Part shown: piece by piece, positions 50,377 through 63,313 of the stretch
How positions within the stretch are numbered: position 1 is the stretch's first letter
How the letters are laid out: each line of letters starts with the position of its first letter
Assembly: GCA_038212095.1 (NCBI GenBank)
Contig: JBBQUW010000012.1
Coordinates: 3,526-67,525, forward strand
Source: Gaiellales bacterium
GTDB lineage: Bacteria; Actinomycetota; Thermoleophilia; Gaiellales; JAICJC01
DNA length: 64,000 bases
Direction of reading: 5' to 3'
Program-made: the position numbers and the translations under genes
Notes under the pieces: generated by a model
Told to the model about the DNA's origin: nothing
Seen by the model: only the letters and a program-made list of their open reading frames with translations
Database searches by the model: none

Positions 50377-50973
50377 ATGAGCCAGTCCGCCGACTCCTCG
50401 AACTGGGAGGAATTATGGCCCTCGATCTGGGGTCAGGTTGAGATCGTCCCCATCGGTGCGAGTGGGAGCCATCGAATCGTTATCGACCACCTGCTGCCGC
50501 CGAGCGCCGGTACTGGTCAGTCTGGGCTCCGCATCTCAACCAAACGCGCCGCCAGGCTCACAAGTGGCGACTTCGATCCCGATGCCGCCGAAATTGTCCA
50601 CCAGCGAATGGCCGCGAAGAAAGGACGTGTGATCGTAGCTTTCGATTCCGGATCCGGACTTGTTCTGAGCGCGCTTGCGTTTCACATTGAGACTACGAAG
50701 CCGGTGCTAGTCAAGGCCTTTGCTGTGGAACTTCAAGAGGGTCGCCCAACCATCCGTGGCCTAGCCGCGCGACGGATCCTCAAGGCGTACGCCCACGTGG
50801 TGAGCGCAAAGCTGAACAAAACCGGGGACGTCTACTTCGGCAAGCCCAAGAGGGCTGATGAAGCACTAAAGGCCGAGTTGAAAGCGTTGGGGTTTCAGCT
50901 CGGCAGGCAGAATATGTTCGAACGAGCCGCTGAATACTACCGCCAGCCAGCTGACCAAACGTCGGAGCTTTAG
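50377..50973 (+). CDS. hypothetical protein
   Basis: Long ORF with atypical codon usage; possible degenerate GNAT fold (LKALGF). Confidence 0.5.
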   Translation: MSQSADSSNWEELWPSIWGQVEIVPIGASGSHRIVIDHLLPPSAGTGQSGLRISTKRAARLTSGDFDPDAAEIVHQRMAAKKGRVIVAFDSGSGLVLSALAFHIETTKPVLVKAFAVELQEGRPTIRGLAARRILKAYAHVVSAKLNKTGDVYFGKPKRADEALKAELKALGFQLGRQNMFERAAEYYRQPADQTSEL

Positions 50974-51955: not shown

Positions 51956-52440
51956 TCAGGCATCAAACGGCCGAATGCGAGTGTGCCGCAGGGTTTCCTC
52001 CTTCGTGTCCCAAAGAAAGCCGCCGAGTTCCCCCAACCTGACCTTTCTACCGTGCGCACTGGTGGCTTGGATGAGCACGACCGGCGCCGGGAGAGCGGGG
52101 CCTGGATCGTTCGCGATCGTTCTAGCGGCCGTCGAGTCGCGTCCGCTGGGCCTGGCGACGCCTCTTGGGTGTGTGTGCCAGTCTCCGAGGTATCGCAATT
52201 GGCTATCGGACTCGCGGTAAACGTGGTCAATGAGCCTTTGGGTGTGCTCGCGGTCCGGCCCGTATCCCCACAGCCGGTGCTTTGCAGCTGGGCCTGGCCC
52301 GAACGCCTGGACGACGACGGACCGTCGTTCTCGGCCAGGTAGCCAAACAGGCTTCCGCCTGTTTCTCTGAGCCAATGGCGCCTCGACTCTCGCTCGATCA
52401 CTGCCTTGGCGTCCTCCTGAATCCAAATCACGCTGGACAC
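51956..52440 (-). pseudogene. JAB/MPN (Prok-JAB) peptidase, frameshifted near 52322
   Basis: One frame gives ETGGSLFGY; the other gives GPGP...YLGDWHTHP...PS..D. Confidence 0.75.
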
Positions 52441-53430
52441 ACAGGACACTCCGGGTGTCGCGGCAGCTTGCCTTCGTGCCAGCGGTCGGCGGCAGCCCGA
52501 AGCTTGAGCACGATCCAGTCCGGGCCGGTGGGATAGTCGGTGATCGCGGCTGTTTGGACGGTCATGCGCGCGGTCGCTGCGATCACCTCTTGAGTGTCGA
52601 AGCCAGCGCACGAGGCGGCCGGGTGAGAACAGCCGTAGGGCGTGAAGTGATCGAGGATTCCCTCAGGCACCATCGGAATCGAGCCGCTTCGTTGGTGTAT
52701 CCTGAAGCACTCGGGGCAACCGCCACCGGGCTTGAAGGCGACGACGCGGCCGCCGACACCGCCCGGCGTGATCGCCGCCATGATCAGCGGCACACCCTCT
52801 GCCATGCAGTGTCTCCAGAGGGCGTCGGTGACCATCGCGGATCCTGTTGCATCCACCACGACAGCGGATGCGCTGATCAGATCATGGATCCTCTGTCTTG
52901 ACTCGATGCTCCCGCCCACCTGAAGCACGTGTGCACGCGTGGAGACCAGCGGATTGGCGCGCGCGGCCAGCTCAGCCACCGCCTCGGCCTTGAACCGCCC
53001 GGCATGATCAACGGTCAGCACGTGACGCACACCGTTGTTCACATCAAAGACGTCGCTGTCGACCAGATCGATGGCACCGGCTCCGGCGCGAGCTATCTCA
53101 AGTGCGAGCGGGCCACCGAGTGAGCCCGCACCAACGATCGTGATCACGGCCTTCTCGAATCCCCTGAGCTCTCGAGTGCGTGCCCGTTGGACAAGCCGGC
53201 TCAGGGCCTGGGTAGCGAACTCCCGTACCCGCTCAACCGACTCATCAGCGCGCTGGGTAATCTCAAACACCCGCCACGCGCGGCGATGATCGCCTCGACG
53301 CGGCGCCTCCTCGAAGTAGGAGACCGCGACCACAAACGTCTTTGACTGAAGACGCCGGCCTTTCTTGTGGCCCTTCTTGCCCACCGACACGTTCCTTGGC
53401 AGTTGCCGGACGGCCTCCCTGAGCGGTTCG
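52428..53430 (-). pseudogene. ThiF/E1-like adenylyltransferase, N-terminally truncated
   Basis: IVGAGSLG, DSDVFDVNNGVRH, DATG, CPEC and CPVC; upstream sequence is HsdS. Confidence 0.75.
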
Positions 53431-54307
53431 AACCGTCCACGGGCGCGACTCCAACCTTCTTGAAGTACGGACGCAGCTTGCCGAAGAGAATATCCCCCGC
53501 CTTGAATCGGCTCGTCGTCCCAGAAACGCTTGATCGCTCTCCCCAGGCGGAGAGAACAGTTGATCCGCGAGGCATGACGTCCAGTCCGATGTAGGGACTG
53601 TGATCGTCTCGTGTGCCGGCGGGCGCCGTATCCTTGACCAACTGGACGACCTCCCGCAGTTCGACCACGCGCCATGCCCTGGGAATCATCCCAATCTCCG
53701 AATCGACTAAGTCGTCTGCGCCGTCGAAGTCGATGAACCGAGACCGGAACACAGCCTCGCCGATCTGTTCGAGCGTCAAGCAAATACGTCGATTCAACTC
53801 GATCTTCTCGTCGAAGACGCCCAACGTGGTCGCGACGGCGCGTTGCCGGGGCAGCGATGGCAGCGCGATGGGAAGCGACGAAAACGTCTTTTTGTTCAGA
53901 ATCGGCTGCGCGGATCCACCCGCCGCGAGCTGTCTGAACTCGGCGCGACGAGCGAGCAGAGCGTAATAGACGAACATTGGATCCGCGATGTCTTCCCGGA
54001 CAATGATCGAGTTGATCTGCTGGTTTGTGACTGAGTTCGCGCCTGCTATGGCAACCTTTCCCATGTCCGAACCGATGCAGGACACCATTACGCTGCCGCA
54101 GGGGATGGTGGCGCTCACCACAGACCCAAGTCCATGCGGGCTGAGGTTACGGAGTGTCCGCTCGATCACTCGCCTGCCGTCCATGTCACTAGGCGTAACG
54201 AATGGGACGTCGCCCCCAAAGTCCTCCGGGAGCGCTCCGGGAGGGGTTCGCCCAGTTACGACTCGCCCGAGATCAGAGATGGTGACGGTCGAACCATGCT
54301 TACTCAA
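53430..54307 (-). pseudogene. hsdS: type I restriction-modification specificity subunit, truncated
   Basis: TGRTP, TNQQI, GGSAQP, LPRQRAV...LEQIGEAVFRSRF, GDILFGKLRPYFKK; second TRD breaks off. Confidence 0.8.
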
Positions 54308-55910
54308 GCCGCAGCCCTCGGAGCTTGACGCGAATCTCATCTTCCAGCCGTCGTCCGCACCCAAACTGACCTTCGAGGATCGCTGTCAGGTGTGCGACGC
54401 GCTCGTTGAACGGCTCATCCCAGGCAAGATCTGTGCCGGCGGTGCCAACATACCGCCCTGGCGTCAGTATGTAGTCGCGCTTTTCGATGTCGTTATGTCG
54501 GGCCGCGAAGGAGAATCCCGCCTCGTCGACGTACTCGCCCGCCTCCGGTCCGCCGCGCCAGGCGTGGTAGGCGTCGGTAATGCAAAAGATCTCGTTTTCG
54601 GTTAGCTCGATCTGAGTTCGGTTGACCTTGACGCCCATCTTCCGGGCGTCGATGAAGAGCGTCTCGCCTCGGCGGTCTCGCTCGCCGGCCGAGGCTTTGT
54701 TTCGGTCAAGGAACCACAGGCACACTGGGATCCCGGTGGTGAAGAAGAGTTGAGGCGGAAGCGCGACGATGCAGTCAATGAGATCGTCGAGGATGATCTT
54801 CTCGCGGATCTTGCCCTCTTGACCGCCGGCTGAAAGCGAGCCGTTGGCCATGACGAACCCGGCTTTGCCGTCCGGCGCGAGATGGTGGATGAAGTGCTGA
54901 ATCCAGGCGTAGTTGGCGTTTCCATCAGTCGGAGCGCCATAGACCCAGCGCACGTCGTCTGCGACCTGGTCGGCGCCCCACTTCTTCATGTTGAAGGGCG
55001 GGTTGGCCATGATGTAGTCGGCTCGCAAATCCTTGTGCTGGTCATCAAGTAGCGTGTCTCCCAGCGCGAGGCTGCCTGAGAGGCCGTGGATGGCCAGGTT
55101 CATCTTGCCGATGCGCCAGGTAGCCTGGTTCATCTCTTGGCCGTAGAGCGCGATGTCCTGGGCGCGGCCGCCGTGCGCCTCGACGAAACGGCCCGACTGG
55201 ATGAAGAGACCGGCCGAGCCAAAGGCAGGCTCGTAGATTCGGCCCTTGAACGGCTCGAGCATCTCAACCAGGAGCCGCGTGACCGAGGCTGGGGTGTAGA
55301 ACTCGCCGCCGCGATGGCCCTCGGCGCGGGCGAAGGTCTTGATGAAGTACTCGTAGGTGCGGCCGAGAATGTCTCGCGCCTCCTCAGCGCTCTGGCCAAA
55401 TCCGATTTTGGCGATAGTCGTCACCAGTTCACCGAGCTTGGCCGGCGAGAGAGCAGCGCGCGCGTAGATCCTGGGCAGTACGCCTCGAAGCGAGGTGTTC
55501 TCCTGCTCGATCAGCTCGAGCGCGCGGTCGATCCTGACGCCGATGTCAGCCTGGTTGGCGCTGGCGAGCAGGCCCTCGTCGATGCCCTCAGGGTTCGTCC
55601 AGTGCCAACGGGCCCGCTCGGGCACCCAGAAGACGTTCTCAGCCGTGTACTCGTCCCGATCCTCGAGGATATCTGAGCGCTCGGCCTCATCCTCCGTGAA
55701 CAGATCACTTGCCGGGTCGTGCGTCTCAGCCTCGAGGGTCTCGCGCTTGATCGTGAAGGCGTCTGAGACGTACTTCAGGAACAAGAGGCCGAGCACGAGA
55801 TGCTTGTACTCGGAGGACTCGACGCTGCCGCGCAGGCCGTCAGCCGCTTCAAACAGGGTTCTGGCGAAGGGCAGGTCGGTGCCGTTGCCGCCGGTGGGGT
55901 TCGTCGCCAT
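54300..55910 (-). CDS. hsdM: type I restriction-modification methyltransferase subunit
   Basis: LGLLFLKY, GEFYTP, EPAFGSAG, ANPPFN, LTPGRYVG. Confidence 0.93.
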   Translation of the reverse strand: MATNPTGGNGTDLPFARTLFEAADGLRGSVESSEYKHLVLGLLFLKYVSDAFTIKRETLEAETHDPASDLFTEDEAERSDILEDRDEYTAENVFWVPERARWHWTNPEGIDEGLLASANQADIGVRIDRALELIEQENTSLRGVLPRIYARAALSPAKLGELVTTIAKIGFGQSAEEARDILGRTYEYFIKTFARAEGHRGGEFYTPASVTRLLVEMLEPFKGRIYEPAFGSAGLFIQSGRFVEAHGGRAQDIALYGQEMNQATWRIGKMNLAIHGLSGSLALGDTLLDDQHKDLRADYIMANPPFNMKKWGADQVADDVRWVYGAPTDGNANYAWIQHFIHHLAPDGKAGFVMANGSLSAGGQEGKIREKIILDDLIDCIVALPPQLFFTTGIPVCLWFLDRNKASAGERDRRGETLFIDARKMGVKVNRTQIELTENEIFCITDAYHAWRGGPEAGEYVDEAGFSFAARHNDIEKRDYILTPGRYVGTAGTDLAWDEPFNERVAHLTAILEGQFGCGRRLEDEIRVKLRGLRLE

Positions 55911-55965
55911 GGGCTCTATTATCACCGGAGTTTGGGCGGCACGGCGGTTGTGTGCGCCCTCGAAG

Positions 55966-56715
55966 CTAGCAGTTCACGTAGCGCACCGGTGATTGGCTGC
56001 CACGCTTGGTCAGGTGATCGACGCTGCCGAGCCGGTACTTCTCGTCCATCTCTGGCGAGCGGTGGCCGTTGAAGCCGACTCGGCCGGCGACGTGCGGCGC
56101 TGGGTACCAGTCATCGATCACGTAGCAGCCCCGGATGATGCCTCGCGCCACTGCGAAGGCGTAGGCGGCACCTTCGCGTCGGGTGCCGAGCTTCCATTCC
56201 TGCTTGACCGCCTGGTAGAGCTCGTCGCCGTCGATATTCGGCGTGCGACTCCACACCTTCTCGATCTTGATCAAAAGCACCGGCTCCGTGATGTCGACCC
56301 GCTCAGCGCGGTACTCGGCGACGAGGTCGTCGAGCGGTCGCCAACCGCGGGCGGTGCCGTGCCCGCGTTGCAGGTTTGTCAGCCAGTCGTGACCGGCCAG
56401 TCGCAAGGCGTCGATCACGGCAGCCTCGACCTGGTAGGCCTCGTCGCTGCTCTCAAGATGATGGCGGAGTATTTCGACCCCGACCTGCTTGCCAGCCTGG
56501 TGGATTTCCTGTATGCCGGCCATCTTCAGCTCACGCTTTGACTCGCCAGCCTGCCACGCGCCACTGGCCGCCTTGGCGTGTTGTATGCACGCGATCTCCG
56601 ACACCCTTGCCGACGTAGAAGATGCGGTTGTCGCGGAGCGAAGCGCGTAGACGTACCAGCCGAGCTTCTCTGCCACGCCGGGGAGGAAGCGGAAAGATTT
56701 TGATTCGTCGGTCAC
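55966..56715 (-). pseudogene. GIY-YIG (LEM-3-like) nuclease with internal frameshifts
   Basis: WYVYAL in one frame, IFYVGKG..DR in another, then EAAVID...LTN back in the first frame. Confidence 0.7.
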
Positions 56716-57105
56716 TTTGGTTGCTCCTATTGAGGTCAGTTGAATAGTCGCGGCGCTGCTTCCAGTCTGTCGCGACCAAATCGGGCCCGCTTACGCCCAG
56801 TCGATCGGCGACGAGCCTGATGGTCTCCTCGTCGCGAAGGCGGCAGACCGTCATCTGGTTGGAAAACAGGCCGCCTCGAGGATCGCATCGGCGACCGATC
56901 GAGTGGTGAGCCAGTCGACCCCCAACGACGTACTCGCAGTTATCGGCATCGTTAGCGTCCAAGCTGAACCGGGCGTCGATGCCCTGGCGTTCGAAGGGCT
57001 GGCCGGCTAGGGCAGGTCGCTCGGAGTGGTAAACCTGAAGAGGCCCCGCTGGTGGCGGGGCCTCTTGGGTTCGGGTGTGGATTGGTCGCACGCTTTGGCT
57101 GTCCC

Positions 57106-57207
57106 CTAGATGTAGTGACCGAGGCCGGCCGTGGCGGCGAGGCTGACGGCCGTGGCGGCCAAGAGGGCGAGTCGGGCGAGGCGGTGGTTGGTGGTGATGC
57201 GGGTCAT
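57106..57207 (-). CDS. 33-aa secreted-type peptide precursor, copy E (MTRITTNHRLARLALLAATAVSLAATAGLGHYI)
   Basis: RBS AAGGAG, ATG...TAG; paralogous to the four peptides at 62.5-63.1 kb. Confidence 0.85.
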   Translation of the reverse strand: MTRITTNHRLARLALLAATAVSLAATAGLGHYI

Positions 57208-57255
57208 GGTGTGTGCTCCTTGTGATGTGGGTCGCGGGGTGCGTCCCTTGTGTGG

Positions 57256-57299
57256 AGTGTCGGAGCGAGTCCTAAAGCGGCGCATACGGCTGGCTAAAG
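57256..57299 (-). promoter_or_regulatory. SARP-type direct-repeat promoter 1
   Basis: Minus strand CTTTAG-N16-CTTTAG-N10-GACACT. Confidence 0.7.
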
Positions 57300-57393
57300 T
57301 CGGGGGAGGCGGCTGTGGCCGAGCTTGGTTGGCTGGTCGGCAGCGACTCCTGGTTGACAGGCTGGGTGGTGTGGGCGAGTCTTGCTTGTGCTG

Positions 57394-60300
57394 ATGAGTG
57401 CGAGCGTTGAGATTGGTGTGCTTGGGTCGCTGGTGGTGTGCCGCGATGGCACGGTCGTAGAGGTCGCGGCGCCCAAGCAGCGAGCTCTGCTCGCCTTGCT
57501 CGCATTGGAGGCTCCACGGGCGGTTTCCACCGATTCGTTGGTCGATCAACTCTGGGAGGGCGAAGCGCCCAGGTCGGCGAGTACTGCGGTGCAGGTGTAC
57601 GTCTCGCAGCTGCGCAAGGCGTTGGGCAAGGTGGCGATCGCGACCCGCCCGCCCGGCTACGCACTTGATGTGGCTGTCGGCGGCGTCGACGCGCTGGCGT
57701 TCGAGCAGTTGGCGGCCGAGGGACGGTCGCTGGTTCGGAGCGGCGAGGTTGAGGCGGCCGCCCGCGTGCTGAATCAGGCGCTGGGTCTCTGGCGTGGTCA
57801 GGCGCTGGCCGAGTTCGTGTACCAGGGATGGGCGGCGGGACCGGCGGAGCGGTTGGAGGAGCTGCGTGTGGTCGCCCGCGAGGATCTCGTGGATGCGCGG
57901 TTGGGGTTTGGGGAAGCGCGGGAGATGGTCGCTGAGTTGGAAGCCTTGGTTGCCGCGTTTCCGCTCCGCGAGCGGCTACGTGGGCAGCTGATGTTGGCGC
58001 TGTATCGTGCTGGCCGGCAGGCTGATGCGCTGGCTGTGTATCAGGATGCGCGGCGCGTGCTGGTCGACGAGCTCGGGATCGATCCCTCGCCTGGTTTGGC
58101 GGAGCTCGAGCGGCGCATCCTGCAGCAGGACCCGGAGCTCGGATCAACGTCGATGCCTTTGACGGCGGTTATCTCAGATACCGAGAGCGATCAGGCGCGC
58201 GCCGCTCGCGTCGATGGCTCCGCCGGCGGGGGCACACAGCTGTCCAGCGCTAAGGCGGACGCTCCCCGTCGGGAGCGCAAGGTCGTGACGATCCTGTTCT
58301 GTGACCTGGTCGAGTTCACGGCCGCTGCTGAGGCGAGCGATCCCGAGGATGTGGACGTGATCCTCGGTCGCTACTACGCGATGGCGCGGGGCGAGGTTGA
58401 GCGGTTTGGCGGGACGATTGAGAAGTTCATCGGCGACGCTGTGATGGCGGTGTTCGGCGCACCTGTTGCACGCGAGGACGATCCCGAACGGGCGGTGCGC
58501 GCAGCCTTGGCCATCATCGAGCGGGCCGCCTCGCTTCGCCAAGAGGACGCAACCGCACACCTCGAGGTCAGGCTCGGCGTCACCACCGGAGAGGCACTCG
58601 TCAAGGTCGACGCAGACACTGCTCGCGGTGAGGCAATGGTCTCCGGCGACGTTGTCAACACGGCAGCGCGCCTGCAGGCCGCCGCACCGATCGGTGGCGT
58701 GCTGGTTGATGCGCTCACCATGCGCGCGACCGCTCACGCGATCCAGTATGGAAGGAATGACCCGCTGGTCGTGAAGGGCAAGCGCGAGCCGGTTTCGGTC
58801 TGGCTGGCACTCGAAGCGCTCGCTGTATCTGGTGAAACCAACGACTCGTCAGTGCCGCTGGTGGGGCGGGCGTATGAGCTTGGCGCGCTTCTGAACGCGT
58901 TCGCTCGCACCTGCGAGGACGAGTCGGTGCAGCTTCTCTCGCTTGTCGGGGTACCCGGCATCGGGAAGAGTCGGCTGGTCGCCGAGCTGCGCCAGCATGT
59001 CGATACAGAGCCGGGTCTCGTGACCTGGCTTGAGGGCCGATCGCTTGCCTATGGCGAGGGCCTCGCGTTGTGGGCGCTGGGTGAGATCGTCAAGGGTCGT
59101 TGCGGGGTCAGCGAGGCGGATCCGGCAAAGGTCGCCGCCGAGAAGGTCGAAGCGACGGTCACTCAGCTGATCGATGATCCGGCCGACGCGGCCTGGGTAG
59201 CAGGGCAGCTTGCCTTCTTGGTTGGTGCGGAGGTGGCAGGTGCCACGAGCGGCGTGACTGATCGCGGCGAGGCGTTCGCTGCCTGGCAGAGGTTCGCTGA
59301 GTCCATTGCCGATCAGGGTCCGACAGTGATGGTGTTTGAGGATTTGCACTGGGCAGATGATGCGCTGCTTGACTTCATCGACTTGCTGGCCGACCGCGCC
59401 AGCTCGGTGCCACTGCTTGTGGTCTGTACGGCGCGCCCTGAGCTTCTGCAACGCCGTGCATCCTGGGGCGGCGGCAAGCAGAACGCCACCACGCTGAGCC
59501 TGGCGCCGCTTGCAGACCAGGAGACCGGCCAGCTCGTAACCGAGTTCCTAGGCGAAGACGACGCATTGGGCGAGATGAAGTCACGGGTCATCGCACAGTC
59601 GGAGGGAAACCCCCTGTTCATACGTGAATATGTGCGCATGCTGCGCGACGAGCGTGCCTCCGACTCGGCGAGCGCAGGGAGTGGATCGCTTCCGATTAGC
59701 ATCCAGGGGCTGATCGCCGCCCGCCTGGACGCGCTTTCATCAGAGGAGAAACAGGTCGCACAGGTAGCCTCGGTGATTGGCCGGGTCTCTTGGATCGGGG
59801 CAATCTCGCATCTGCGTGGTACTTCGCCAGCAGGGCTTGACGAGATACTCCACCGACTTGAACGGCGGCAGCTGTTTCGCCGGAACCGGCACACGACGAT
59901 CCCCGGCCACGTCGAGGTCACGTTCACTCATGCCCTGATCCAAGATGTCACCTACCACCAGATTCCCCGCGCCGAGCGCGCGAGCTATCACCGTGCAGCT
60001 GCCGAGTGGATCGAGGGCGTGAGCGGCGAGCGCGACGATCGCCTGGAACTGCTCGCACATCACCTCGGGGCCGCGGCCAGCCTCGACTGCCAAACCGGCA
60101 ACGAGGACGCACGGTTTGCCGAGCGAGCGTCTCGAGCACTCAAGAGCGCCGGTGATCGCGCGGCCAGCCTCGGGGCGTACTCGGCCGCCGCCAATCACTA
60201 CGCGGCAGCGCTTGCGCTGGCAACGGAGGAGGACGATCTCGCGACGGGGCTGTTGCTGCTTGACCGTGGCAAAGTGCTCTTCCAGATCGCCGAGACGTTC

Positions 60301-61437
60301 CCAAACGAGCTCCAGCGCGCGACCGAGATGCTCAGCCGCCTGGGCGACACAACCCACGCCGCGGAGGCCGAAGCCTACCGGGCCGCGTGGCTTGTCAACC
60401 ATAATCAAGCAGTTGAGTCCTACGAGCACATAAAGCACGCCTGCGAACTGCTCCGGGACGAACCGGACTCCCCCGAGAAGGCATTCGCCGTAGTCGGGCG
60501 AGGGCGAATCGGCTCCGAGCTCGGTGACCGCGACTGCTGGGATCACATCGTCGAGGGTCGAGCAATGGCGCAGCGGCTTGGGATCCCTGACCTTGAAGCG
60601 CGAACATTGTTTGTGATCGGTGAGGAGCGCCTGTTTCGCGACGATCCGGAGGGCTTGGTCGACATTGAGGCCAGTCTCGCTGTCGCTCGCACCCTCAGGT
60701 CGGGCCATGCCGTTCTCTGCAAGCTCTGCATCCATGGCGACTACCTGGCCCTCGGTCGTATCAGCGAGGCTCGCGAGCTTCATCTCGAGGCAATGCTGCA
60801 GGCCAGAGATCTCGGCCTTCGCACATACCAAGACGTGCTCCATGCCCAGTTTGCCCGCCTCAGCTTCGTCCTCGGCGACTTTGACGCAGCCCGAGTGACC
60901 GTAGAGGAGGCGCTGAGCTCTCTGACCGCCGGGGGTGATGTCGAGCGAAGCGGGACGCTGGTACTCGGCGACGAGGCGACGGTCGCGATCCGAGCGGTCA
61001 TGAATCTCGCTGACGGGCGACCCAAGGAGGCGAAGAGAGACGCCCGACTGTCCCTACAGGTCGCCCCGGCCGGCTCAACTAGCATGGCTTTGCCGCTGGC
61101 GTTGGCGAGCTTCGTTCACTGGTCGCTCGGCGACCCAACCGCTGCCGAAGGAACGGCAGACGAGTGGTTTGCGATGGTCGAAGCCGAGCGCATCTTTCTG
61201 ACCGGGTTCGCATGGCCATTCCTCGCCCAATCCCTGCGCAGCCTCCATCGCGAGCAGGATCTCTTGGCCGCGATCGCGCGGATCCGCGTCACGACACCCT
61301 GGGTCGAATCCGCCAGGCTGATCGCGACCGACCGCTTCGATGACGCCGCGAAGCTCCTCGTTAGTATCGGCGTATCCGATGCGTTCGTCGCCCTCGTGGG
61401 ACTCAGCGCCGAGCATGGCGCACATCGCACCACCTGA
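57394..61437 (+). CDS. AfsR/SARP regulator: wHTH-BTAD, class III adenylate cyclase, STAND ATPase, TPR-like helical C-terminus
   Basis: KQRALLALL/VYVSQLRK, ALGLWRG/PLRERL, FCDL/EKFIGDA/VNTAARL, GVPGIGKS/FEDLHWAD. Confidence 0.92.
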   Translation: MSASVEIGVLGSLVVCRDGTVVEVAAPKQRALLALLALEAPRAVSTDSLVDQLWEGEAPRSASTAVQVYVSQLRKALGKVAIATRPPGYALDVAVGGVDALAFEQLAAEGRSLVRSGEVEAAARVLNQALGLWRGQALAEFVYQGWAAGPAERLEELRVVAREDLVDARLGFGEAREMVAELEALVAAFPLRERLRGQLMLALYRAGRQADALAVYQDARRVLVDELGIDPSPGLAELERRILQQDPELGSTSMPLTAVISDTESDQARAARVDGSAGGGTQLSSAKADAPRRERKVVTILFCDLVEFTAAAEASDPEDVDVILGRYYAMARGEVERFGGTIEKFIGDAVMAVFGAPVAREDDPERAVRAALAIIERAASLRQEDATAHLEVRLGVTTGEALVKVDADTARGEAMVSGDVVNTAARLQAAAPIGGVLVDALTMRATAHAIQYGRNDPLVVKGKREPVSVWLALEALAVSGETNDSSVPLVGRAYELGALLNAFARTCEDESVQLLSLVGVPGIGKSRLVAELRQHVDTEPGLVTWLEGRSLAYGEGLALWALGEIVKGRCGVSEADPAKVAAEKVEATVTQLIDDPADAAWVAGQLAFLVGAEVAGATSGVTDRGEAFAAWQRFAESIADQGPTVMVFEDLHWADDALLDFIDLLADRASSVPLLVVCTARPELLQRRASWGGGKQNATTLSLAPLADQETGQLVTEFLGEDDALGEMKSRVIAQSEGNPLFIREYVRMLRDERASDSASAGSGSLPISIQGLIAARLDALSSEEKQVAQVASVIGRVSWIGAISHLRGTSPAGLDEILHRLERRQLFRRNRHTTIPGHVEVTFTHALIQDVTYHQIPRAERASYHRAAAEWIEGVSGERDDRLELLAHHLGAAASLDCQTGNEDARFAERASRALKSAGDRAASLGAYSAAANHYAAALALATEEDDLATGLLLLDRGKVLFQIAETFPNELQRATEMLSRLGDTTHAAEAEAYRAAWLVNHNQAVESYEHIKHACELLRDEPDSPEKAFAVVGRGRIGSELGDRDCWDHIVEGRAMAQRLGIPDLEARTLFVIGEERLFRDDPEGLVDIEASLAVARTLRSGHAVLCKLCIHGDYLALGRISEARELHLEAMLQARDLGLRTYQDVLHAQFARLSFVLGDFDAARVTVEEALSSLTAGGDVERSGTLVLGDEATVAIRAVMNLADGRPKEAKRDARLSLQVAPAGSTSMALPLALASFVHWSLGDPTAAEGTADEWFAMVEAERIFLTGFAWPFLAQSLRSLHREQDLLAAIARIRVTTPWVESARLIATDRFDDAAKLLVSIGVSDAFVALVGLSAEHGAHRTT

Positions 61438-61526
61438 ACCGACTCCCATTCACGGTACGCGAACGCACGAGTGCGGCGCCGAGCATCTGGATGCCCGGCG
61501 CCGTGGAGCGCGACAACTCGTTTGGT

Positions 61527-61802
61527 TTAGACGCTGAGCATCGGCTGGTTGGTGCAGGTGGAGGCCGGCGTCCGGGTGGCACTGGAGATCGCGAACTGGA
61601 AGTGGGCGTTGGGAAAGGGGCACAGCGGCGTTTGCATCGACCGAACGACCTGCGGGGCATCGGTCGCCGGGGCTTGCGTCGATGCGAAGAACGATTGCAC
61701 CGTGAGGGTGGTCAGGATGGCGAGCAGAAGGACAGCTGCGTAGCGCGCGATGCGCAGCACTGCCGGGGCGAGGTGATCGGTGGGGACGGTGGCCTGGTTC
61801 AT
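61527..61802 (-). CDS. small membrane-anchored/secreted protein with two cysteines
   Basis: RBS AAGGAG, one TM segment, own SARP-type promoter. Confidence 0.7.
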   Translation of the reverse strand: MNQATVPTDHLAPAVLRIARYAAVLLLAILTTLTVQSFFASTQAPATDAPQVVRSMQTPLCPFPNAHFQFAISSATRTPASTCTNQPMLSV

Positions 61803-61843
61803 GACTGCTCCTTGTGTTCGTTGGATTGTTCTGATCTGTGCTG

Positions 61844-61887
61844 AGTCTGCGATGCCGTGCTAAAGCCACGCTGATGGGCTGCTAAAG
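61844..61887 (-). promoter_or_regulatory. SARP-type direct-repeat promoter 2
   Basis: CTTTAG-N16-CTTTAG-N10-CAGACT. Confidence 0.7.
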
Positions 61888-62307
61888 CTGGCCTATGCGA
61901 GGTCGGGGGAGCCGAGCGATCGGCACGGACACGCGCTCGTGATCGCTCCCACGCCGGCTTGCTCGCCGAGCGGTTGAAGGCCGCTCTTCGGGCGGCGGTG
62001 GGTTTGGCGTGATCGGAGTAGTTGGCGCCGCTTGCGGGGAAAGTCGTATCCATGCAGCTGCGCCGAGCAGTCCGGCGCCAAGCAGCAGGGTGGGCAGGAA
62101 GGGGTCGGGCCACCCACCGGTGAGGTGGCGTGGCGGTGTGACGTAGCAGAGCGCGGGCGTGCAGGCGCGTCGCGGAGTCGTCTGGGTGAACGAGGCGGCG
62201 ATCCGGCCGGCAATCCGGGTTCGCAGAGTCTGCGCGGTGAGACTGCCGGCGATGATCGCCACAATCGTGAATACCGCTAGGGCGCGGCGAAGTCGTGCTT
62301 TGTTCAT
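61882..62307 (-). CDS. small two-TM membrane protein
   Basis: RBS GAGGAG, two hydrophobic helices, own SARP-type promoter. Confidence 0.6.
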   Translation of the reverse strand: MNKARLRRALAVFTIVAIIAGSLTAQTLRTRIAGRIAASFTQTTPRRACTPALCYVTPPRHLTGGWPDPFLPTLLLGAGLLGAAAWIRLSPQAAPTTPITPNPPPPEERPSTARRASRRGSDHERVSVPIARLPRPRIGQL

Positions 62308-62353
62308 GGCTCCTCCTCTGGATGGGATCGCCTTTGGGCGATCTGGTGGAGCC

Positions 62354-62397
62354 ACTGTCGAACAGCCCCCTAAAGCGGCAACAAGCGGCGGCTAAAG
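62354..62397 (-). promoter_or_regulatory. SARP-type direct-repeat promoter 3
   Basis: CTTTAG-N16-CTTTAG-N10-GACAGT. Confidence 0.7.
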
Positions 62398-62478
62398 CGA
62401 CGGGATCTGAAGCCCGGAGGTAAGGCCAGAGGGTCAACGCAGCTGAGCACGACCAGTGAGCCACGGGCGGCGGAAAGA

Positions 62479-62516
62479 GACAGCGGAGACCCCACCACGA
62501 CGGGGTCTCCGCTGTC
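62479..62516 (-). terminator. intrinsic terminator of peptide array
   Basis: 15-bp perfect stem GACAGCGGAGACCCC / GGGGTCTCCGCTGTC, followed by TCTTT on the minus strand. Confidence 0.8.
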
Positions 62517-62546
62517 AACGGGTTTGAACGGCTACTGGCAGAGCCG

Positions 62547-62648
62547 CTACTTCCAGTTGCTACCGCCAACAGTCGCGGCGATGCTGATCGCGGTTGCGGC
62601 GAGCAGGGCGAGGCGGGTGATGCGGTGGTTAGTGGTGATGCGGGTCAT
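62547..62648 (-). CDS. 33-aa peptide precursor D (MTRITTNHRITRLALLAATAISIAATVGGSNWK)
   Basis: RBS AAGGAG, 102 nt, TAG stop. Confidence 0.88.
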   Translation of the reverse strand: MTRITTNHRITRLALLAATAISIAATVGGSNWK

Positions 62649-62697
62649 GGTGTGCTCCTTCGCGGGTCGTTGAAGTGGGAAAGGCGCGGGATGTCGC

Positions 62698-62799
62698 CTA
62701 GCTCCAGTGGCTGCCGCCGACGGTGGCGGCGATGCTGATTGCGGTTGCGGCGAGCAGGGCGAGGCGGGCGAAGCGATGGTTGGTGGTGATACGGCTCAT
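62698..62799 (-). CDS. 33-aa peptide precursor C (MSRITTNHRFARLALLAATAISIAATVGGSHWS)
   Basis: RBS AGGAG, 102 nt, TAG stop. Confidence 0.88.
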   Translation of the reverse strand: MSRITTNHRFARLALLAATAISIAATVGGSHWS

Positions 62800-62847
62800 G
62801 ATGTGCTCCTGGTGGGTTGTTGAGGTGGCCGGGGCGCGGTATGAGGC

Positions 62848-62949
62848 CTAGCGCCAGTTGCTGTTGCCGATGGTGGCGGCGATGCTGATCGCGGTTGCGG
62901 CGAGCAGGGCGAGGCGGGTGAGGCGATAGTGGCGGGTGATACGGGTCAT
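62848..62949 (-). CDS. 33-aa peptide precursor B (MTRITRHYRLTRLALLAATAISIAATIGNSNWR)
   Basis: RBS AAGGAG, 102 nt, TAG stop. Confidence 0.88.
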   Translation of the reverse strand: MTRITRHYRLTRLALLAATAISIAATIGNSNWR

Positions 62950-62991
62950 GGTGAGCTCCTTTGATGGTGTTGAGGTGGTCGAGGCTCGGAT

Positions 62992-63093
62992 CTAATGCCA
63001 GTTGCTGCCGCCGACTGTGGCGGCGACGCTGATCGCGGTTGCAGCGAGGAGGGCGAGGCGAGTGAGTCGGTGGTTGCTGGTGATGCGGGTCAT
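62992..63093 (-). CDS. 33-aa peptide precursor A (MTRITSNHRLTRLALLAATAISVAATVGGSNWH)
   Basis: RBS AAGGAG, 102 nt, TAG stop. Confidence 0.88.
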   Translation of the reverse strand: MTRITSNHRLTRLALLAATAISVAATVGGSNWH

Positions 63094-63141
63094 GGTGTGC
63101 TCCTTCTGGTGTGGGTCGCGGTGTGCGTTCCTTGTGTGAGC

Positions 63142-63185
63142 AGTGTCGGGGGAGCGGCTAAAGCGGTGGCTATGGGCGGCTAAAG
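63142..63185 (-). promoter_or_regulatory. SARP-type direct-repeat promoter 4 (peptide array)
   Basis: CTTTAG-N16-CTTTAG-N10-GACACT. Confidence 0.7.
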
Positions 63186-63236
63186 CGGCGGCTCCGACTC
63201 GCTGACAGGGCCCGGTGAGCGGGGAGGGTTGCTTAG

Positions 63237-63313
63237 CTGACGGTTGCGAGCGTTGAGATCAGGTCGTTGGGGTCGCTTGAGGTGCCCGCGACGGTGTCGC
63301 CGTTGACGTGGCC
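63237..63313 (+). pseudogene. 5' remnant of a second SARP regulator gene
   Basis: ASVEIRSLGSLEV/RDGVAVDVA (one frameshift) versus ASVEIGVLGSLVVCRDGTVVEVA at 57394. Confidence 0.65.

Follow-up and report, generated by a model that had tools for sequence, protein, structure and literature searches.

Paired CTTTAG repeats at four predicted promoters around a SARP-type regulator gene in a Gaiellales bacterium

Genes and repeat pairs at the locus

In a 64,000-nt stretch of DNA from a Gaiellales bacterium (the window), a gene for a large regulator lies among five genes for 33-residue peptides and two genes for small orphan proteins. The features are listed below by plus-strand position in the window, with the strand in brackets.

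57040..57068 (-), hairpin resembling a terminator, behind pepA; GC-rich stem of 12 bp
57106..57207 (-), pepA (stop included), encoding the 33-aa peptide MTRITTNHRLARLALLAATAVSLAATAGLGHYI of peptide family A4; ATG, AAGGAG upstream, GC3 0.94
57256..57299 (-), P1: distal CTTTAG 57294-57299, proximal CTTTAG 57272-57277, 10-nt spacer, -10-like GACACT 57256-57261
57354..57382 (+), putative regulator-gene promoter: TTGACA, 17 nt, GAGTCT; read by eye
57394..61437 (+), regulator gene, 1347 aa, characterised by Pfam, NCBIfam, PDB sequence search, a C-terminal model and Foldseek
61527..61802 (-), orphan gene, 91 aa; AAGGAG, ATG, GC3 0.85; N-terminal hydrophobic segment, two Cys
61844..61887 (-), P2: CTTTAG 61882-61887, CTTTAG 61860-61865, 10 nt, CAGACT 61844-61849
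61882..62307 (-), orphan gene, 141 aa; GAGGAGGAG upstream; two hydrophobic segments, CTPALC motif
62354..62397 (-), P3: CTTTAG 62392-62397, CTTTAG 62370-62375, 10 nt, GACAGT 62354-62359
62479..62516 (-), hairpin resembling a terminator, behind the peptide operon; its 15-16-bp stem is perfect (arms 100% complementary)
62547..63093 (-), peptide operon: four tandem 33-aa genes in 150-nt repeat units, each with its own AGGAG and ATG, GC3 0.82-0.91; pep4 62992-63093, pep3 62848-62949, pep2 62698-62799, pep1 62547-62648
63142..63185 (-), P4: CTTTAG 63180-63185, CTTTAG 63158-63163, 10 nt, GACACT 63142-63147
63236..63310 (+), dead second copy of the regulator 5' end beside P4; 76% match by alignment

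The five peptides are near-identical, with a basic N-terminus, one hydrophobic helix and a tail of the form G-x-[GS]-x-[WY]-x. Their hydrophobic core of 15 residues has a Kyte-Doolittle mean of 2.0-2.6, and the differences among the paralogues are concentrated in the last residues. Across the family, column entropy is highest in the tail (1.43), followed by the core (1.24) and the N-terminus (1.08), and the N-terminal 12 residues, MTRITTNHRxxR, are conserved on a par with the core. The family is rare and metagenomic, with lengths of 32-35 residues; neither peptide nor locus was found in 864 related genomes (64 of the family, 400 of the order and 400 of the class). The segment 57030-57105 behind pepA folds at -35.4 kcal/mol (z -4.85), a stability reached by none of 200 shuffles, and the hairpin behind the operon at -40.8 kcal/mol (z -5.37).

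An earlier note on this DNA had described two small membrane genes. Each does lie behind a repeat-pair promoter, the 91-aa gene behind P2 and the 141-aa gene behind P3, but both are orphans for which family searches came back empty. The 91-aa protein belongs to no Pfam or NCBIfam family and matched only itself among 5.8e9 proteins, while the 141-aa protein, searched as an in-frame 157-aa reading, likewise has no Pfam or NCBIfam family and a best Atlas score of 0.84. The coding status of the 141-aa gene is the weaker, because its GC3 is only 0.70. AGGAG-type ribosome sites precede all seven genes (five peptide, 91-aa and 141-aa).

On the plus strand, CTAAAG-N16-CTAAAG occurs four times in the window, at 57272, 61860, 62370 and 63158. 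Read on the minus strand, every site consists of CTTTAG-N16-CTTTAG, exactly 10 nt and a weak -10-like hexamer, followed after 41-48 nt by an AGGAG-type Shine-Dalgarno site and ATG. This bears out the claim of four exact 22-bp pairs, each 10 bp from a -10-like hexamer. P1 occupies the divergent intergenic region adjoining the regulator gene; at P2, the stop codon of the 141-aa gene, TAG, falls inside the distal hexamer. The four sites are without a -35 element, and their predicted weak -10 reads SASAST. A consensus promoter scan returned no site at the locus, the predicted -10 hexamers included. In the middle slot between the 22-bp-spaced repeats, CTTTAG is matched, by eye, at only 2-4 of 6 positions.

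Rarity of the repeat pair

How unusual is this arrangement? In 100 dinucleotide-shuffled versions of the window the paired pattern never arose, and 8 of the 10 CTAAAG/CTTTAG hexamers observed there (3.49 expected) belong to the four pairs. In the whole assembly (2,940,018 bases, 61 contigs, both strands) the hexamer has 61 copies, 8 of them at the locus. Same-orientation pairs less than 100 bp apart number four, all spaced by 22 bp and all at this locus. A look-elsewhere control over all hexamers at spacings of 11 or 22 found no other place in the genome where four pairs fall within 7 kb.

A weight matrix built from the four sites was used to score 113 prefiltered candidates across the genome. 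The sites themselves score 53.7-57.0, values inflated by self-training, and the next best genomic site scores 9.6. The genome-wide check proposed earlier, for further regulon members or pairs at random positions, thus found pairs nowhere but here. A search of 400 further genomes from the class for the exact pattern found six copies, spread over five genomes and never clustered, as against about 22 occurrences (our own count) of a reversed-pattern control in the same genomes. Allowing up to one mismatch in 40 relatives gave four genomes with one match each, which is not above control.

The regulator and its proposed mode of action

The regulator begins with a SARP unit, an OmpR-type winged helix-turn-helix (wHTH) plus BTAD, at residues 1-270. 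A class III cyclase homology domain (about 295-475), an AAA_16 NTPase (about 492-690) and a C-terminal TPR-fold solenoid (about 880-1347) follow. Its SARP domain is complete (Pfam BTAD E 1e-46, Trans_reg_C E 4e-10), and in the PDB sequence search 247 residues align with AfsR (8hvr, E 4e-48), while EmbR (2fez) matches at E 8e-41. The cyclase domain covers Pfam positions 7-181 of 183. The C-terminal 468 residues were modelled as a TPR solenoid (pLDDT 90.2, pTM 0.87), for which the nearest solved folds in Foldseek are the peptide-binding TPRs TSK/BRU1, APPBP2, LGN and Tom70/71, and MalT domain III. The regulator gene itself has a candidate promoter, which scored too low to pass the consensus scan. 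Between its end and the ATG lie 11 nt with no Shine-Dalgarno site, so the transcript may be leaderless.

In mycobacterial regulators such as Rv0386, a class III cyclase domain precedes an AAA-type NTPase and helical repeats, and the DNA-binding domain is C-terminal and of the LuxR type. The same cyclase-NTPase-helical repeat order is found here, in a module with 14 matches in this genome, but the DNA-binding part is an N-terminal SARP domain. AfsR of Streptomyces coelicolor (8hvr, 8k60, 8jke) is likewise a large SARP with N-terminal wHTH-BTAD, NTPase (NOD) and TPR-type sensor. Its target is a small ORF adjoining the regulator, with a weak -10, a poor or absent -35 and direct repeats overlapping the -35 region. 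The present regulator differs by the extra cyclase domain between SARP and NTPase, by four target promoters and by its host, which belongs to Thermoleophilia and not to Streptomyces. Moreover, T88 and R92, the base-contacting residues of AfsR, align with V68 and Q72 by our reading of the alignment, and the repeats are GCTTTAG units 22 bp apart instead of two adjacent 11-bp units. AfsS is a soluble 63-aa protein, whereas the targets here are hydrophobic 33-aa peptides.

According to a structural account, SARP promoters carry direct repeats 11 or 22 bp apart, and a weak -10 follows the 3' repeat at a distance of about 8 bp (PMC10936776). In the afs box, which extends from -40 to -19, two AfsR protomers sit on adjacent 11-bp repeats and each repeat is contacted over its first 8 bp; at afsS the -10, CACTGT, is weak and the -35 poor (PMC10936776). 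The view that the pairs sit like known SARP boxes agrees with this spacing and with the weak -10. If transcription starts about 7 nt past the hexamer, the proximal GCTTTAG would lie at about -29 to -23 or -22, coinciding with the contacted downstream AfsR repeat as that account places it, and the distal one at about -51 to -45, two helical turns upstream. SARP domains of the regulator would dock on both repeats on one face of the DNA, replace the absent -35 contact and recruit RNA polymerase, like AfsR at afsS. Control of this output would fall to the cyclase, AAA_16 and TPR-fold parts, acting like a STAND switch, which may also produce a cyclic nucleotide.

PimR-type regulators (PimR, PteR, SanG, PolR) share the order of SARP, guanylate-cyclase-homologous region and AAA NTPase and are described as having no LuxR helix-turn-helix (PMC3367932, PMC5930380). 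In PimR the SARP domain recognises directly repeated heptamers in the intergenic DNA beside its own gene (PMC3367932), as the present one would at P1. However, the PimR sites are described as three CGGCAAG heptamers, separated by 4 bp and lying clear of the -35. The guanylate-cyclase N-terminal signature is reportedly absent from PimR, whereas the cyclase match here is nearly full-length. The target of PimR is another regulator, belonging to a polyene cluster, whereas no biosynthetic cluster is present at this locus.

Competing readings of products and binder

What might the products do? One reading, of rather low probability, keeps the same switch and makes its products effectors: a STAND-type regulator would sense stress or phage, and membrane-inserting peptides and proteins would alter or damage the membrane. 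The output could resemble abortive infection or a toxin; alternatively, a peptide used in competition could be paired with immunity proteins. The genes directly upstream encode a PD-T4-3 defence protein (E 4e-30), an E1-E2 (Cap2-like) protein (E 1e-27) and the HsdM/HsdS pair of a type I restriction-modification system, and those downstream a tyrosine integrase, a DUF3631 protein and a protein of the PilZ type. Because the locus sits in this defence and mobile island, a membrane-effector role counts as an equal rival. The failure to find the locus in the family, order and class genomes searched also favours it, as do single-helix peptides whose length is fixed at 32-35 aa and whose cytoplasmic and membrane parts are conserved. 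Five peptide copies suggest a dosage effect, and the NTPase part weakly resembles Avs1b (NCBIfam E 0.0012, far below the cut-off). However, cyclase-AAA_16-TPR proteins are very numerous in the lineage as housekeeping-type signalling proteins, so the island position may be coincidence. PycC matches (best E 1e-18) do not outscore the generic Pfam cyclase match, and an output by way of transcription is slow for abortive infection.

It is unlikely that the peptides are signals. In that reading the 33-aa products would be pro-peptides that leave the cell and are trimmed to a short C-terminal peptide; the regulator would detect this peptide through its TPR domain and switch on P1-P4 in an autoinducing, quorum-sensing-like loop. 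The autoinducing module of the earlier note drew no support from the analyses made here. The basic N-terminus, hydrophobic core and short, most variable tail resemble the layout of RRNPP pro-peptides (PMC10075063), and the solved folds nearest to the regulator C-terminus include peptide-binding TPRs. A regulator-type operator before the peptide genes would give positive feedback. As in the RRNPP systems of Bacillota (Rap/Phr, NprR, PlcR/PapR, Rgg/SHP, PrgX; PMC10075063), a small pro-peptide-like gene here adjoins the gene of a cytoplasmic TPR-fold regulator, which presumably controls the peptide genes. By contrast, their receptors are given there as 250-500 aa, against 1347 aa here with a SARP wHTH, NTPase and cyclase, and Pfam and NCBIfam showed no RRNPP-family homology at the locus. 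The phylum also differs, and secretion and sensing are only proposed. Furthermore, a disposable signal peptide would not usually show the core-like conservation of this N-terminus, family and neighbourhood annotation found no peptidase, exporter or oligopeptide importer gene in the locus, and the two membrane proteins are left without a role.

Which protein binds the repeats? That the adjacent SARP activates P1-P4, as first proposed, is consistent with its full SARP domain and its being the only DNA-binding gene in the locus. However, the genome encodes three SARP-domain proteins, the other two on contigs C8 and C5, and the C8 protein has the identical recognition-helix sequence QVYVSQLRK, so the sequence does not single out the adjacent regulator; the sites are assigned to it by adjacency. 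An operator of another SARP or an unrelated factor, or repression instead of activation, is nevertheless distinctly unlikely. The sites are confined to the surroundings of this regulator gene, and at least one orthologue (P0023, 53% identical along its full length) has at least two peptide genes divergently upstream, read from an over-extended reading frame. A site over a missing -35 beside a weak -10 is an activator position (PMC10936776).

P1/pepA and P4/pep4 are duplicates, including a 44-nt 5'UTR stretch at 91% identity, and the duplicated cassette brought the regulator 5' end along, as the remnant beside P4 attests (ATG changed to ACG, a 1-nt deletion, homology gone near 63310). Of the proposed four-promoter regulon, all four sites are real but only three are independent, because P1 and P4 are duplicated. 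That the motif is a mere relic of such duplication, without binding function, is highly improbable, given that the 16-nt and 10-nt spacers drifted while the rare hexamers stayed intact, and that P2 and P3, before unrelated genes, align with P1/P4 at nothing but the hexamers and the -10.

Within the genome the repeat pair is unique to predicted promoters around the regulator, and it is therefore most likely that regulator's private switch. We put at roughly two in three the probability that P1-P4 are SARP-type activator-dependent promoters and together form the whole private regulon of the regulator encoded among them. Switched on, they would yield four short transcripts (pepA; pep4-pep3-pep2-pep1; the 141-aa gene; the 91-aa gene), and the cell would make two small membrane proteins together with five near-identical peptides of 33 residues, destined for the membrane or for secretion.

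Geometry and occurrence of the repeat pairs

Around the gene of a large regulator with a SARP domain, the plus strand carries four pairs of the direct repeat CTAAAG, starting at 57272, 61860, 62370 and 63158. Read on the minus strand, each pair belongs to a predicted promoter (P1 to P4). On sequence grounds, it is probable (roughly 0.65) that the four sites and the regulator form a private SARP regulon.

Genes and local features of the locus
57040-57068: hairpin after pepA
57106-57207, minus strand: pepA, the fifth 33-codon peptide gene, under P1
57394-61437, plus strand: regulator gene, 1347 codons, between P1 and P2
61527-61802, minus strand: 91-codon orphan gene, under P2
61882-62307, minus strand: 141-codon orphan gene, under P3
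62479-62516: perfect 15-16-bp hairpin, 3' of the four-peptide-gene unit
62992-63093, 62848-62949, 62698-62799 and 62547-62648, minus strand: four tandem 33-codon genes (pep4, pep3, pep2 and pep1), under P4
63236-63310, plus strand: dead relic of a duplicate of the regulator 5' end, beside P4

The earlier note had claimed that the four sites share an identical geometry, and this is borne out. The repeats are spaced exactly 22 bp from start to start in all four. On the minus strand, a stretch of exactly 10 nt (9 nt with the 8-bp GCTTTAGN as the unit) separates each pair from GACACT, CAGACT, GACAGT or GACACT, predicted -10 hexamers in which A2, A4 and T6 are constant. An AGGAG-type ribosome site and an ATG follow the predicted -10 after 41-48 nt at every site. 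P1 to P4 have no -35, and their -10 and transcription start are predicted ones.

How unusual is this arrangement? The window holds no fifth match to CTAAAG-N16-CTAAAG, none of 100 dinucleotide shuffles of the window contains one, and eight of its ten CTAAAG/CTTTAG hexamers form the four pairs. In the whole assembly (2.94 Mb, 61 contigs, 69% G+C) the hexamer occurs 61 times on both strands, and the only same-orientation pairs up to 100 bp apart are these four, all at 22 bp. A genome scan for further sites, proposed in the earlier note, revealed none comparable: the weight matrix, trained on the same four sites that it scores, gives them 53.7-57.0 against 9.6 for the next candidate. When all hexamers at a spacing of 11 or 22 are compared genome-wide, no other word has four pairs in 7 kb. 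Among 400 other genomes of the class there are 6 scattered matches in 5 genomes, compared with about 22 for the reversed-pattern control by our own count, and a one-mismatch search of 40 close relatives gave four single matches. That the four-pair observation lies far beyond chance is confirmed.

The two unpaired hexamers of the window, at 50866 (plus) and 50968 (minus), are in opposite orientation 102 bp apart, with no 22-bp pairing, and sit at the junction of two unannotated ORFs. The runner-up in the phased-repeat genome scan lies outside the window, on another contig (G000:C8:14986-15370); its three repeat units (~145-215 bp) each contain CGGTGCCTGGCA twice, 22 bp apart, and appear to be intergenic. 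At P2, the distal hexamer (61882-61887) includes the TAG stop of the 141-codon gene, so that operator and coding sequence have these bases in common.

PMC10936776 describes two spacings of the direct repeats in SARP targets, 11 and 22 bp, and places the 3' repeat 8 bp from the -10. According to the same source, the afs box spans -40 to -19, each AfsR protomer contacts the first 8 bp of an 11-bp repeat, and afsS is preceded by a weak -10 (CACTGT) with a poor -35. In a SARP-box promoter the 3' repeat would in addition overlap the -35 region of a weak promoter. Assuming a transcription start ~7 nt past the hexamer, the proximal GCTTTAG would lie at -29 to -23, the position given there for the AfsR downstream repeat, and the distal repeat at -51 to -45. 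By eye, the slot between the repeats resembles CTTTAG at 3, 4, 2 and 2 of 6 positions; because this likeness extends to only 2-4 positions, each site may bind either two or three protomers.

Duplicated promoters and the candidate regulator

Are the four promoters independent of each other? Judged by their alignment, P1-pepA and P4-pep4 are duplicates. The similarity covers the peptide gene, a 44-nt UTR stretch (91% identity, compared with ~70% in the coding sequence) and the operator, and extends into the regulator promoter and the first 25 codons. In the remnant beside P4, the ATG has become ACG, 1 nt is deleted, and the homology is gone near 63310, where an AT-richer stretch and the 645-aa orphan gene of an integrase-bearing element start. 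The peptide array may have grown by duplication of the whole divergent unit. As regards INDEPENDENCE of sites, there are three independent promoters, not four, because P1 and P4 are duplicates.

Within this duplicate both hexamers are unchanged, unlike the spacer that separates them and the one that follows, which have diverged. P2 and P3 stand in front of unrelated genes, and only their hexamers and -10 are shared with the other promoters. Since the hexamers are intact where the spacers have diverged, and P2 and P3 are alike only in hexamers and -10, the conservation pattern reads as that of a constrained binding site.

The 5'UTR stretches of pepA and pep4 (57211-57254 and 63095-63138) are CA-rich and weakly structured (z -2.7 and -1.5), and their core CGCACACCGCGACCC recurs as the residues GSRCA in the read-through of P0023, a regulator orthologue from metagenomes. 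These stretches may act as a translation or stability element. A search of Rfam gave no match at E up to 0.1.

Which protein binds the four sites? Three genes of the genome encode a SARP domain. The regulator, its orthologues and the SARP of contig C8 have the recognition helix QVY[VI]SQLRK in common, and because the C8 protein has this same helix, the sequence does not single out the adjacent regulator as the binder. The case for the adjacent regulator is positional: the sites are found around its gene only, P1 lies inside its divergent intergenic region, and the promoter cassette was once duplicated together with the start of its gene. Directly 5' of the regulator ATG, TTGACA-17 nt-GAGTCT may be the regulator's own promoter; no ribosome site is seen there by eye.

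The SARP domain comprises Trans_reg_C (E 4.2e-10) and BTAD (E 1.1e-46 over the full profile) in Pfam, and matches the solved structures of AfsR (8hvr, E 4.2e-48) and EmbR (2fez, E 8.3e-41). It is followed by a nucleotide-binding oligomerisation domain, AAA_16, at residues 492-681 (Pfam, E 1.7e-21). The regulator also has a class III cyclase domain, with a Guanylate_cyc match at E 4.1e-19 that covers profile positions 7-181 of 183. On motif inspection of 58270-58820, what we take to be the two metal-binding Asp seem to be present, as presumably are the Lys that precedes the second Asp by four residues and the Asn/Arg of VN-x-A-x-R. The cyclase may be active.

In Pfam, the C-terminal 468 residues match TPR only below threshold (TPR_12, E 0.19). 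Modelled with 20 relatives, residues 880-1347 form an all-helical solenoid (pLDDT 90.2, pTM 0.87), for which Foldseek returned TPR proteins at probability 1.00 (best E 3e-6). The closest solved folds are peptide- or tail-holding TPR proteins and MalT domain III, with a TM of 0.69 normalised by target for the latter. By this model, the 1347-aa regulator would carry an AfsR-like C-terminal TPR sensor, and it would resemble AfsR in the succession of SARP domain, NTPase and TPR fold.

The combination of a SARP domain with a cyclase-like region and an AAA part is already known from PimR. As described in PMC3367932, the PimR SARP domain recognises heptamer repeats next to the gene that encodes it, at a site without -35 overlap. 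The regulator resembles PimR in its SARP domain, guanylate-cyclase-like region and AAA NTPase, with no match to a GerE/LuxR HTH in Pfam and NCBIfam. It differs from the PimR type in its neighbours, which are defence, restriction and mobile genes and not a biosynthetic cluster to control.

We propose that the regulator would dock on the two repeats under the control of its NTPase and TPR parts, a mode of gating described for AfsR in PMC10936776. The docked protein would then substitute for the absent -35 contact and turn on four short transcripts. The earlier note had assigned the sites to SARP regulation in an autoinducing module. The geometry and the SARP link are supported, with a full domain and one of the published repeat spacings; the label 'autoinducing' has gained no support.

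Relatives and the peptide family

The cyclase-AAA_16-TPR module is very common in this lineage, with 14 matches in the source genome and a presence in 39 of 41 genomes. Four-domain regulators are also frequent in metagenomes, with 6574 matches among 8000 candidates scored, and some of their names point to Thermoleophilia and Gaiellaceae. The closest orthologues (P0012, P0011, P0010, P0017 and P0023) show 53-59% identity over the full length. A metagenome scan with the full-length regulator alignment found at least 80 paralogue loci at 35-53% identity; among those listed, none has a peptide gene. Two DNA runs contained only contigs identical to the window and unrelated paralogue fragments, with no informative variation, and no RNA run is listed for the locus.

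A profile search of 1.84 billion representatives with the peptide returned 12 proteins: ten peptides of 32-35 residues, the window's own, and a repeat protein that is a spurious match. All ten come from short metagenome contigs, and one was called with a long false start. The family follows the pattern MTRITTNHRxxRLALLAAxAISxAATVGxGxWx, in which the tail is most variable and the N-terminal dodecapeptide is conserved as much as the hydrophobic core. Two pairs of peptides have the same listed longest-contig value, which hints at arrays. P0129, a 33-aa member, bears the source name 'short subunit fatty acids transporter', which almost certainly reflects faulty annotation. The best ESM Atlas values, 0.89 for the peptide and 0.84 for the 141-aa orphan protein, are under the 0.9 lead level.

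Is the pairing of regulator and peptides conserved? Upstream of P0023, its over-extended frame reads two or more peptide genes of this kind in antisense, and the pairing is therefore conserved at least once. This frame contains one 'LK', which would fit CTAAAG, and one 'LE', which would fit a variant differing by one base, at a spacing unreadable from protein.

The peptide was not found in other genomes of the family (64), the order (400) or the class (400), and tblastn with the peptide gave no match in the plasmid collection. In species-representative contigs the exact N-terminal peptide DNA pattern had 0 matches, and the orthogroup-specific C-terminal alignment A6 had 44 pattern matches with 0 confirmed; in viral contigs, alignments A6 and A2 gave 54 and 70, again with 0 confirmed. 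The single order-level match was rejected as spurious: it is the signal peptide of a larger protein, of 520 aa or more, whose frame leaves the locus. Similarly, a 'peptide' neighbouring a SARP in G017 belongs to a 103-aa secreted protein as its signal peptide and is not a family member.

Surroundings and possible roles of the locus

Genes on either side of the locus
52428-53783, minus strand: E1-E2 (Cap2-like) gene
53201-54364, minus strand: HsdS, type I restriction-modification
54300-55925, minus strand: HsdM, type I restriction-modification
55966-56715, minus strand: PD-T4-3 (GIY-YIG) defence gene (E 4e-30), nearest to pepA
from 63481: 645-aa orphan ORF, then a PilZ-domain protein (locus L137, G000:C12:66700-73403)
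past the window end: tyrosine integrase, small CxC6-like protein and DUF3631 (also L137)

The listed E1-E2, HsdS and HsdM ORFs overlap, so their true starts are shorter. The L137 genes probably belong to a mobile element integrated next to the locus; a search for tRNA genes near this element and between 55000 and 64000 found none. The locus is an accessory island, which fits its absence from relatives, and it may have a role in defence or competition.

What do the peptides do? With 33 aa and 186 bp from its start to the regulator ATG, pepA resembles the pro-peptides of RRNPP systems, for which PMC10075063 gives criteria of 10-100 aa and -60 to 400 bp. In contrast, RRNPP receptors are placed at 250-500 aa by the same criteria, and the regulator has 1347. 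The TPRs of RRNPP receptors bind the mature peptide; in the regulator, a TPR fold is predicted by the model. An RRNPP pro-peptide is also expected to be secreted by Sec (SignalP) or to match SHP; the pro-peptide features seen in the peptides are a basic N-terminus and a hydrophobic core only. A complex prediction of the TPR domain (880-1346) with the peptide alignment scored 0.01 against a mark of 0.32, a value that counts neither way.

It is unlikely that the peptides are a membrane effector of a stress or defence switch, and somewhat less likely still that they are a secreted autoinducer. Otherwise they would be small membrane proteins with another role. A full peptide-signalling circuit can also be envisaged, in which the TPR solenoid of a STAND-type SARP with an adenylate-cyclase domain would sense the products of its own five peptide genes, by the secreted tail or the conserved cytoplasmic N-terminus, and would answer with transcription from four private SARP boxes and cyclic nucleotide synthesis. 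This would be RRNPP-like logic in a deep-branching lineage of Actinomycetota, assembled from components that are not known for such a task and carried by a mobile or defence island; that all of this holds together is quite improbable.

To our knowledge, SARP activators are known almost only as antibiotic-cluster switches in Streptomyces. As a private SARP regulon, the locus would be a very small, self-contained test system, with one regulator, four near-identical operators and seven tiny products. It would carry the AfsR-afsS theme, in which a large SARP has a small ORF as its target, into an uncultured lineage outside Streptomyces, with an apparently complete cyclase domain as the new element, and it defines a rare peptide family of 32-35 residues. 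If the peptides are ligands or effectors of the regulator, they would give a first view of what STAND-type SARPs respond to and what they control.
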